A DNA stretch of 64,000 bases from Alphaproteobacteria bacterium (GTDB lineage: Bacteria; Pseudomonadota; Alphaproteobacteria; MPNO01; UBA830). Of this stretch, positions 6,499 to 9,260 are shown one piece after another. Position 1 is the first letter of the stretch. Each line of letters opens with the position of its first letter. The position numbers were made by a program, and so were the translations under genes. The DNA lies in the NCBI GenBank assembly GCA_964291215.2, contig OZ219791.1:2464001-2528000 (forward strand), in the 5' to 3' direction. The notes below the pieces were generated by a model, which was not told where the DNA came from, made no database searches, and saw nothing but the letters and a program-made list of their open reading frames with translations.

Positions 6499-6881
6499 GA
6501 TCATGCCCGCAGTCTCCGATACGTTCATCAGTATCCTCCCGGACCCGGCAGAACCTCGTCCGGCGCCATCGGAGGACGGCGGGGGTCGACTTCGCAGGCG
6601 ATAAGCGTGCCAGTCAACATGATTCAGCGTGCCGCCTAGCGTCGCTGCTGCCGCGGCCGGTCCGCTCGTGCTCTCCTGATAAGGTCATCCACCCGAGCGA
6701 TCATGACGCTCAGGTCGTTGGGCTCCGGCAGCCCACCGGATCGTGCCTCTGTATGACTGTGCCCTTCGATGTAGGATGACAATTCGTAACTGCCCAGGTC
6801 TGCTTCCGGCGATCAGCCACGGGTTATGGACTGAAGCTTCCGTTCTGCTGCCGCGGACGCGGAGGCGAGCGGCGGGGGATT

Positions 6882-8287
6882 TCAGAGGCGCAGTCTCGGG
6901 ATCAGCTGCATGGGATCGGGATGCGCCAGGGTTTCGAGGACATTCCAGCGTTGCTTTCGGGCTGTTGCGATGACGGAACGCAGGCTGGCGAAGTCGCGGG
7001 CGCCTTGCATTGATCGGAAGCCGCCCGAGATTTTCTGGCGCAGCTTGCCCATGCGGAGGTCGCGCTCGGCCTGGTTGTTCGAGAAGGGGGTTCTCGGGTC
7101 GGTGAGGAAGCGCAGGCAGCCCTCCTTGTATTTCTGGAGCCGGAGGGCGAGGTTGTGACCGATGCGGCGCTTTTGTCGTCCGTGCTTTCCGCTCTGGAGG
7201 GGCGCCATCTCTTCGTGAGAGGCGATGGCCTGCTCAAGGATGCGGTCCCAGGCTCGGGAGATGCGGGCCACCAGTGAAGCGGGCAGGTCGCGGTCATTCT
7301 TGCGGGCGAAGCGGGCGGCTCTGTTGGCACGGCTGAGGAGCCGGTGCGTGGTGGCTGCCCAGTTCTCGATCTCGATCAGGGCTTGGAGTTCGCGCAGGTG
7401 ATGGGCATTGCAGGCCCCGTGGCGCACGCCTTGGAGAGCGAAGTAGGTGGCGTAGTCGTCATGGATGACGATGCCGTTGAGCTTCTCGTCGATGTGGCTG
7501 CGCCCGGCGGCGATGCGCAGGATGGTCAGCAACGGGGTGCACAGTACGTGGAGCCATTGGGTCCGGGCGGCGATGCGGATGCCGGTCTCGTCGAGGTGTT
7601 TGACCGGGGCCGCGGTGCGGATGATCTCGCCGACACGGTCGAGGAAGCCCTCGAAGCGCCGGGCGGTGCGTCTGCCCATGGCGGCGATGGTGGCGGTTGA
7701 GAGCCTGACCGCGAAGAGGTCGCTCATGACTTCGGCGACGCGCTTCTCCGGAATGAACTGCGCGTGCAGCAGGTAGGTCACCCACGCGGTGATACGCGGC
7801 CCGTACTGGACCGGGGCGCCGTTCGGGAAGACGGCTGTCGTCACGGTGCCGCAGGCGGCACAGAGGCAGCGGTGCTCGGTGACCTCAAGGGGCTGCGGCA
7901 CATCGAAGACCTGCCGGCAGACGGGGGCTCGGTGACGCTCAGCGGCCGACAGCGGCGCGCCGCAGCCCGCACAGGCGCAGGGATCATGATCGACGACATG
8001 GTCGGGCGTCGCGGTCCGCTCCAGAGTGGTTCCCTTGTGGCTGGCCGCCGCCTGTCGGACGTGCCGCTCCGGGTGCGCTGGGGTCCGCTCTTCTTCTTCA
8101 GACCGTCGCTGGCCGGCGACCGGGAGCTGGTGGTGCTGTCGAGCGCGGCACTGCGCTCGAGTTCGGCAATCCGCTCGCGCAAGTGGGCGTTCTCCCGCTC
8201 CAGCGCGTCGTTCTCCCTGACCAGCGCCGCGCTCAGGCGCAGCAGCCCCTGGCCCGGATGGCTTTGATGACCGTCATCGCCAGGCAT
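6882..8287 (-). pseudogene. IS66 transposase (TnpC-like), frameshifted in its 5' third
   Basis: APVQYGPRI, HLDETG, ACNAHHLREL, PFSNNQAERDLRMGKLRQKISGGFRS. Confidence 0.9.
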
Positions 8288-8355
8288 TGTGGGGTGAAAA
8301 GGTCCTGCAGGCACGCAAAAGCCTCGTCGTGGCCGGCGAGGTCCTCGCGCCACCG

Positions 8356-9015
8356 TCACGGGACCTCGCCGGCCATGATCGCGGCCAGCACCGCCAGGCG
8401 TTCGCCCGCCGGCATGGCCTCGTAGAGCCGGCCCCAGTTGGCCGCCTTGCGCTTGATGCGCTGGCGGTCGGTGAAGTTCCGGCCGGCGAAGCGCGCCCAG
8501 TGCACCCGGTCGGGCGCGAAGTTGAACCACACCACCTCGGTCCGCACCCGGGCCTGGGTCGTCACCTGCAGCGCCAGCCGGCGCCAGCCCGACAGCAGGT
8601 CGTCATAGAGCGCAGACGGGTGGCCCGAGACCATCACCTGGCAGGGCAGACCCTTGAGCAGCTCAAGCAGCGCGACGTGGTCGGCCTCCGCATACTCGAA
8701 GCGGTAGCGCTGCGACGAACGCCGGGTCGCGTGCAGATAGGGCGGATCGCTGTAGACCAGCTCCGGGCCCAGAAACGCAAACGACGCCAGAAAGGAGTGG
8801 GCGCAGCCATGCACCAACTCCACCGGGTAGTCGCAGCCAAAGGCCTCAAGCGCCCGCTCATCGAGGTCGATCCCGATCGAGCGCACGGCAGCAGGCTTGC
8901 GCTTCATCAGCGCACCGCCCCCCAGGTGACTCTCGATATAGACAGAGTGCGGCGGCATCAGCGCAATCAGCGCCTGGCTCAGACCCGTCGTCGCCTTCGA
9001 TCCGAAATACCCCAC
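8356..9015 (-). CDS. DNA N6-adenine methyltransferase (Dam/D12-like), apparently intact
   Basis: YFGSK (motif X), YIESHLGGGA (motif I), LVYSDPPY (motif IV), RTEVVWFNF; GGAGGAG RBS before GTG at 9015. Confidence 0.88.
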   Translation of the reverse strand: MGYFGSKATTGLSQALIALMPPHSVYIESHLGGGALMKRKPAAVRSIGIDLDERALEAFGCDYPVELVHGCAHSFLASFAFLGPELVYSDPPYLHATRRSSQRYRFEYAEADHVALLELLKGLPCQVMVSGHPSALYDDLLSGWRRLALQVTTQARVRTEVVWFNFAPDRVHWARFAGRNFTDRQRIKRKAANWGRLYEAMPAGERLAVLAAIMAGEVP

Positions 9016-9260
9016 CAGCCGCTCCTCCCATGCGAGAGGGCAACCCATAGGCGCGCGCGCCTATGCAGTCAAGGCCGAGAGCAGCGACACGGCGAACAAA
9101 ATCAGCAAGCTCTCACACTTGGCAGGGTACCTGGGTAGTTACGACAATTCTTCGTACGACCCGATGATGTCCTCAATCAGACCGTCATCCCAGTGTACCC
9201 TCCTCAGGCCGGTTACAATTACCCGATCCGTCCACCGGTTGACGACCTGCTTCAGAAGGT

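Follow-up and report, generated by a model that had tools for sequence, protein, structure and literature searches.

The window, by which we mean the whole 64,000-nucleotide stretch of DNA analysed (contig OZ219791.1, positions 2,464,001 to 2,528,000), holds at 6786–9142 a 2,357-bp element of the IS66 family. Between its terminal inverted repeats (TIRs) and target-site duplication (TSD) lie a promoter-like sequence with an inverted repeat, a gene for a 219-aa protein and a transposase gene whose start overlaps the stop of the preceding gene:

6778–6785, no strand: TSD GACAATTC, transposase side (flank comparison and empty site in runs X2, X3 and X5)
6786–6799, plus: TIR GTAACTGCCCAGGT, downstream end (end and copy comparison)
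6882–8040, minus: zinc-finger and DDE part of TnpC, an open frame with four small in-frame deletions
8041–8359, minus: N-terminal part of TnpC, DUF6444 coiled coil, its GTG start overlapping the stop of the small gene
8356–8359, minus: GTGA stop/start overlap from small gene to transposase, found in 23/23 distinct type-A proteins
8356–9015, minus: 219-aa Upf31-family protein, predicted Dam-type catalytic fold (residues 1–168) and two C-terminal helices (181–217)
9022–9028, minus: ribosome-binding site GGAGGAG, from the sequence upstream of the GTG
9044–9072, minus: predicted promoter TTGACT-N17-TATGGG, position conserved in 105/110 related proteins
9046–9065, no strand: predicted operator CATAG-N10-CTATG, which occupies the spacer of the promoter together with its -10 box
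9129–9142, minus: TIR GTAACTACCCAGGT, upstream end (end and copy comparison)
9143–9150, no strand: TSD GACAATTC, gene side (flank comparison)

The boundaries proposed in the earlier note, including the 8-bp TSD, proved correct, except that the GTAA-starting TIRs agree at 13 of 14 bases and not over the full 14 bp. Contigs from three of the four public runs compared (X2, X3 and X5) carry the empty site, joining 6777 to 9143 with 8 shared bases, and the genome contains 12 copies of the element, most of them 99.4–99.8% identical and 11 flanked by an 8-bp TSD of a sequence different for each. The window element is a real, recently spread IS66 insertion sequence. Inside its ends we found only the 219-aa gene and tnpC, with neither the canonical tnpA-tnpB pair nor a restriction endonuclease partner gene. 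The open reading frame runs on the minus strand from GTG at 9015 to TGA at 8356 and carries the motifs YFGSK, ESHLGGGA and DPPY upstream of the transposase, just as had been described. The transposase itself is an IS66 TnpC (PF03050, E = 5e-39; NF033517, 236.8 bits against a cut-off of 180). The element resembles the single-TnpC (ISBst12-type) IS66 elements in its PF03050/NF033517 transposase, DUF6444 N-terminus, GTAA...TTAC ends, 8-bp TSD and want of tnpA/tnpB. It differs from them in that its operon opens with an extra, putatively regulatory gene and its own predicted operator, and in that the transposase of the window subfamily is frameshifted.

Alignment with four intact relatives (2,436–2,461 bp) revealed nine small deletions in the transposase, of 8, 7, 12, 5, 5, 6, 9, 6 and 6 bases, which leave one net frameshift near 8045. 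This frameshift results from the two 5-base losses (near 8042–8050), which put the N-terminal part out of frame with the DDE part. The description of an unshifted gene beside an eroded transposase therefore stands as far as the frameshift is concerned, but against the same relatives the small gene has itself lost 9 bases in frame, at its last codons (the aligner gave this 9-base and the 8-base loss as one 17-base gap, which we split by eye). The contig from run X3 has the missing bases and only 3 other differences over 7801–8251, and an 8-base insertion appears at 8345 in this comparison; the window element differs from the X3 form by ten short lost stretches and few substitutions. Programmed frameshifting was considered as the cause of the split transposase and rejected, the intact relatives being single-frame and the X3 contig unbroken. 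An assembly artefact was likewise dismissed, as contigs from X1 and X2 align gaplessly with the eroded form and the lesions, net frameshift included, are common to all 12 genomic copies.

Because every copy shares these lesions, the subfamily must have spread after the damage occurred. No full-length intact type-A transposase gene was found in the assembly; the frameshifted subfamily was probably mobilised by another transposase, and the window copy is probably a member of a recently amplified, non-autonomous subfamily. The suggestion that this particular copy is kept under selection is thus not supported: besides the shared lesions, the small gene is intact in ten of the 12 copies and broken in two, and the chance of no more than one of ten deletions landing in it is P = 0.14. 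Nor could selection on the transposase be read from its in-frame deletions, since decayed stub elements of the same genome (see below) show 34 distinct deletions, 56% of which likewise have a length divisible by three.

Sequence searches said little about the 219-aa protein. Pfam returned no family for it, its TIGR00571 score was 24.8 against a cut-off of 114.85, and a PDB sequence search gave DpnM as the sole match (E = 0.56). A first structure model, built from 48 sequences, was weaker (pLDDT 81), and in a Foldseek search with it Dam and other methyltransferases could not be told apart. The model from 70 sequences (pLDDT 91.3) matched DpnM, T4 Dam and E. coli Dam best (Z 16.8–17.7, rmsd 1.8–3.0 over 141–155 residues), with residues 1–168 covering DpnM 15–284 in 155 pairs. 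With these enzymes of the D12 class the protein shares motif order and catalytic fold, a class I fold with the SAM-binding motif ahead of DPPY. It departs from them in its extra C-terminal helices and in lacking some 100 recognition-domain residues between motif I and DPPY, a distance of 62 residues here; in both sequence and model comparison the Dam target-recognition domain between motifs III and IV was absent. Judged from the model, the gene is not Dam, and its product is a predicted Dam catalytic fold without the recognition domain.

The catalytic motifs are nonetheless well kept. DPPY, E28 and W194 occur in 148 of 148 distinct proteins, a count biased for the loci from the species-genome scan and one other scan, whose patterns included DPPY, and not for those from the metagenome scan; D90-P91-P92 is also invariant in the 70-sequence alignment, which was not chosen by that motif. 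The dN/dS comparison proposed in the earlier note indicates purifying selection on the small gene across the lineage, with a median of 0.20 (76 pairs) or 0.13 (1,721 pairs), the pairs not being independent. The family search yielded 3,761 relatives, annotated as DNA adenine methylase in the thousands.

The closest characterised relative is Upf31 of the IncP-1β plasmids pBP136 and R751, the pBP136 protein being 44% identical over 217 residues, C-terminal domain included. In the study of Elg et al. 2025 (PMC11997246), the activity of the Upf31 promoter fell from 4.76 to 0.09 units under repression by Upf31 itself, and each of the substitutions Y180A, F185A and W198A abolishes this repression; these three residues align with F176, F181 and W194 of the 219-aa protein. 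In the same study Upf31 gave neither GATC methylation or protection nor a SMRT kinetic pattern in a methylase-free strain; its N-terminal domain is credited there with DNA binding and its C-terminal one with dimerisation, and the IncP-1β repeats are suggested as its operator (PMC11997246). Taken with the missing recognition domain, these data speak against the working Dam-like methylase that the earlier note had proposed. The two systems share the two-domain model, the catalytic motifs and an inverted repeat placed after TTGAC (PMC11997246 for Upf31). Unlike Upf31, the element protein is encoded in insertion sequences ahead of a transposase, has T182/Q185 in place of R/E, faces the half-site CATAG and not CATCG, and has no KorB partner in the element.

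The inverted repeat is conserved in place and in sequence. TTGAC lies 20–100 bases upstream in 105 of 110 distinct IS-clade proteins (the best-matching one was taken where there were several), and two bases past the fifth base of the hexamer CATAG-N10-CTATG is exact in 70 of these 105 and has at most one mismatch in 95. Over 89 distinct promoters the half-site columns are conserved at 0.82–1.0 and the spacer columns at 0.31–0.65. Since the left half-site falls within the promoter spacer, the needs of the polymerase do not account for it, and an RNA hairpin as the cause of the palindrome was ruled out by a spacer complementarity of 0.30. The operator has been retained over a dS near 0.9 within IS elements. 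Of 13 exact matches to the site in the genome, where chance would give 1.3, 12 fall in promoters of the element itself, and no excess of operator sites that would indicate a host regulon was found across the genome, which leaves the notion of a reshaped host methylome without footing. An action on the element ends was not borne out either, GATC lying at most 40 bp from an end in only 2 of 60 bounded relatives. In E. coli MG1655 the element-type site occurs once and the Upf31-type site CATCG-N10-CGATG 21 times. The latter stands at the same position before Upf31-type and phage genes, and pBP136 has 13 two-sided CATCG-type sites in four clusters, against 1 and 0 in the controls.

Base 4 of the half-site varies with the protein. 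TDRQ-type proteins (plasmid and phage members included) go with A at this base in 156 of 160 half-sites, and RERE-type proteins with C in all 22; two randomly drawn later proteins of plasmid/phage type with R182 but Q185 (L248 and L249) both have CATCG operators. Residue 182 is thus a candidate reader of base 4 (T for CATAG, R for CATCG), a lead drawn from a covariation that amounts to about one change on the tree. A three-way code was not upheld, a third protein class being split between 2 G and 2 T. Five IS-clade proteins, and no others, have a non-aromatic residue at 181; they form one clade, and their promoters are missing the left half-site as well. At one locus (L143; CP003091.1 near 220800) the CATAG-type site precedes not the small gene itself but an upstream gene of the zeta-toxin family, as if the protein were the controller of a two-gene operon.

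A lineage of such elements, as the earlier note had supposed, does exist: an IS66 transposase lies directly downstream in 70 of the best 76 genome loci and in 62 of the best 80 metagenome loci. From the species-genome scan the best 76 of 541 confirmed matches were taken; the 15 genomes behind them are titled Alphaproteobacteria, Dehalococcoidia, Binatia and Tectimicrobiota, 34 of the 76 loci coming from one genome. Among these best 76 of 541, the gene is followed by a type-A IS66 in 63, a type-B IS66 (transposase 31–33% identical to type A) in 7, an IS701 in 3 and no transposase in 1 (2 not parsed), so that a transposase is the downstream gene in 73 of 74 parsed loci; both IS66 ends were present in 60 of the 76 and an 8-bp TSD in 46. 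The metagenome search, for which a relative about 70% identical served as query to avoid closeness bias, gave for the best 80 of 563 loci IS66 in 62, IS1634 in 5, none in 3 and contigs too short in 10. No transposase was seen in 35 parsed viral loci (11 more not parsed). Occurrence is patchy: 400 random genomes of the phylum yielded 2 matches, both plasmid/phage-type and with no transposase.

The cassette, by which we mean the gene with its promoter region, occurs with IS66 transposases only 22–33% alike. It is found in a bounded IS701, whose repeats begin CTCGACTTTG and which is flanked by a 5-base CTNAG duplication at four of five two-ended places in two genomes, and in a third IS66 type of 3,212 bp with 22 full gene copies in one genome (G036) and a TSD in four of five checked. 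At four diverged loci the cassette lies 80–100 bases before an IS1634-type start, and two further candidate IS1634 carriers (L149 and L150) were discarded, since their left end is that of an IS66 and IS1634 seems to have disrupted an IS66 element there. The stop/start overlap is absent from 57 of 61 sediment type-B elements. Relatives at 43–55% identity come from 196 plasmid records (134 conjugative) and from P2-like phages. In a tree of 50 proteins, the genes carried by insertion sequences group together (100/99) and nest within the plasmid and phage groups; type-A, type-B and IS701 carriers are intermingled in one subclade of theirs (100/99). A single IS clade with such a subclade argues for one capture followed by swapping between transposases; the cassette thus likely has one origin, from a plasmid or phage gene.

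The same genome also contains a second IS66 family, three window copies of which begin with the start of the gene:

37106–37349, minus: left end of the second IS66 family (TIR GTAACTGCTCACCCCC), 40-codon stub without operator (genome scan)
39957–40200, minus: second window copy of the stub family, about 40 codons (end comparison)
46601–46760, plus: third window copy of the stub family, cut after about 14 codons

The gene starts that had been reported at other IS66 left ends (37225, 40076 and 46714) are thus present, but they open stubs of about 40, 40 and 14 codons. Stubs make up 167 of the 210 gene-like loci in the genome. At the stub junction, the KRKA codons near residue 40 run straight into sequence beyond a further KRKA, near residue 190; this has the appearance of a deletion between short direct repeats, with loss of the catalytic core. 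Stub elements keep the -35 box after loss of gene and operator. Their family falls in the clade that lost F181 together with the left half-site; it outnumbers the cassette-bearing family about 14-fold, an abundance that is a single observation and is offset by genomes with at least 22 intact copies.

We consider it most probable (roughly 0.7) that the 219-aa protein acts as an autorepressor of the transposase operon and thereby as a brake on jumping, a reading put forward from sequence comparison. Self-regulation of the promoter had been among the options raised in the earlier note, and the conserved operator and the kinship with Upf31 make it the best one, because Upf31 represses its own promoter and needs the aromatic residues that are aligned here. 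A dimer would bind the two half-sites through the basic C-terminal helix, with T182 reading base 4, and would block RNA polymerase at the promoter shared with the transposase. An element entering a naive cell would first give a burst of repressor and transposase, after which the repressor would shut off its own and all sister copies in trans, a copy-number feedback. To dimer binding, repression of the shared transcript and trans shut-off of sister copies we attach the same good, though not overwhelming, odds. Several findings count against autorepression: Elg et al. place DNA binding in the N-terminal domain (PMC11997246), and two proteins (L021 and L221) keep F181 yet have lost the right half-site. 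Elements with an intact cassette still reach at least 22 copies, which speaks against a brake; the overlap missing from most sediment type-B elements speaks against a coupled operon; and the single tree change, with F181 and half-site loss confined to one clade, weakens the residue-to-site code. The full conservation of the catalytic motifs, moreover, is not something that repression alone would obviously need.

This last point leads to a second explanation, which adds to the autorepressor reading and which we regard as rather unlikely: the dimer would bind its half-sites and also methylate an adenine there, one candidate being the -11 A of the -10 box, so that the promoter would reopen briefly after replication, as under host Dam control of IS10 and IS50. 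The invariant D90-P91-P92 and the Dam-like nearest folds favour it, and with only 21 Upf31-type sites in E. coli MG1655 the published motif search could have missed the modification. The missing recognition domain and the negative GATC protection and SMRT results for Upf31 (PMC11997246) count against it, part of the motif conservation is biased by the scan patterns, and the conserved motifs could serve folding or SAM sensing instead. Host Dam controls the IS10 transposase promoter. The IS50 transposase promoter is likewise Dam-sensitive (PMC4265352), and here too an adenine-containing site overlaps the transposase promoter; whereas IS10 and IS50 control depends on a host enzyme and GATC, both the protein and the rare 10-base site here come from the element itself. 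In its strongest form, which we hold doubtful, at least two unrelated IS families would carry a portable 'private Dam', a methylase without recognition domain whose C-terminal helix reads a rare two-part promoter site and which methylates a key adenine, coupling the transposase to replication and copy number without the host enzyme; were this true, the same code would explain the long-unexplained IncP-1β plasmid repeats.

It is improbable that the cassette was captured merely for a strong, self-limiting promoter, control of jumping being a minor by-product. Unrelated transposases did capture it repeatedly, stub elements retain the -35 box, and the gene precedes host genes at two loci, but low dN/dS together with an operator kept to a dS near 0.9 bespeaks long selection on both parts inside IS elements. 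We give even less credence to an orphan methylase whose target is short or loosely defined and which shields incoming element DNA from restriction or alters the host methylome, the operator limiting only its own expression. Anti-restriction methylases are common on conjugative plasmids and phages, as is this family, and purifying selection acts on its catalytic domain. The restriction shield is nevertheless unsupported: an IS, arriving within other DNA, would profit little from it, the transposase operon invariably begins with this gene, and the 167-locus sister family spread with a stub only. A short, frequent target would also have shown in the SMRT test of Upf31 (PMC11997246).

In its proposed role the protein would resemble IS1 InsA, IS3-family OrfA and Tn3 TnpR, element-encoded repressors that limit transposase expression. 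Those repressors have helix-turn-helix folds and either belong to the transposition machinery or work alongside it, whereas this one is a methylase-fold, portable cassette found across IS families, and simple insertion sequences are not known to have a plug-in regulator in common between families. Some IS catalogued in ISfinder have methylase passengers; in the papers searched we found no description of this cassette in insertion sequences. The present analysis contributes an empty site, the finding that all 12 copies carry the same lesions, an IS701 carrier with defined boundaries, the lead that links residue 182 to base 4, and the point that the published Upf31 negative could have overlooked rare sites. 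If the cassette works as proposed, it would offer IS-rich marine bacteria a route to tolerate many copies, and thousands of 'DNA adenine methylase' annotations among the 3,761 relatives may denote repressors. It also bears on an open plasmid question, the target of Upf31 and the role of the IncP-1β repeats, for which we predict the site CATCG-N10-CGATG and the specificity residue R186 (T182 here). A small repressor with one site in E. coli MG1655 would be a clean orthogonal switch.

Several minor observations were made on the way. Decayed stub copies (e.g. window 35900–37349) carry many deletions of 5–9 bases, 6 being the commonest length (13 of 34 distinct events), and remain about 98% identical in substitutions, which suggests an unusually strong short-deletion process in the source genome. 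Among the 12 element copies, shared variants at element positions 774, 1099, 1363, 1801 and 2307 follow conflicting patterns, hinting at recombination or gene conversion between them, and one copy (G000:C2:1663130-1664452) has a 1.3-kb element with 76 long genome matches inserted just 3′ of the DPPY codons. A broken ISKra4-like transposase (weak NCBIfam match) adjoins the element at window 9478–10881. At L182:664-3222 and L189:3501-6379 no transposase accompanies the gene, which lies ahead of an ABC substrate-binding gene and of hmcA, respectively, and whose operator is absent or degenerate; these may be orphaned or domesticated copies. Finally, the IS701 carrier at L074:3515-4000 (minus strand), like that at L067, has upstream of the cassette a divergent ORF of about 95 residues that ends in WTWT and may resemble DUF3024.
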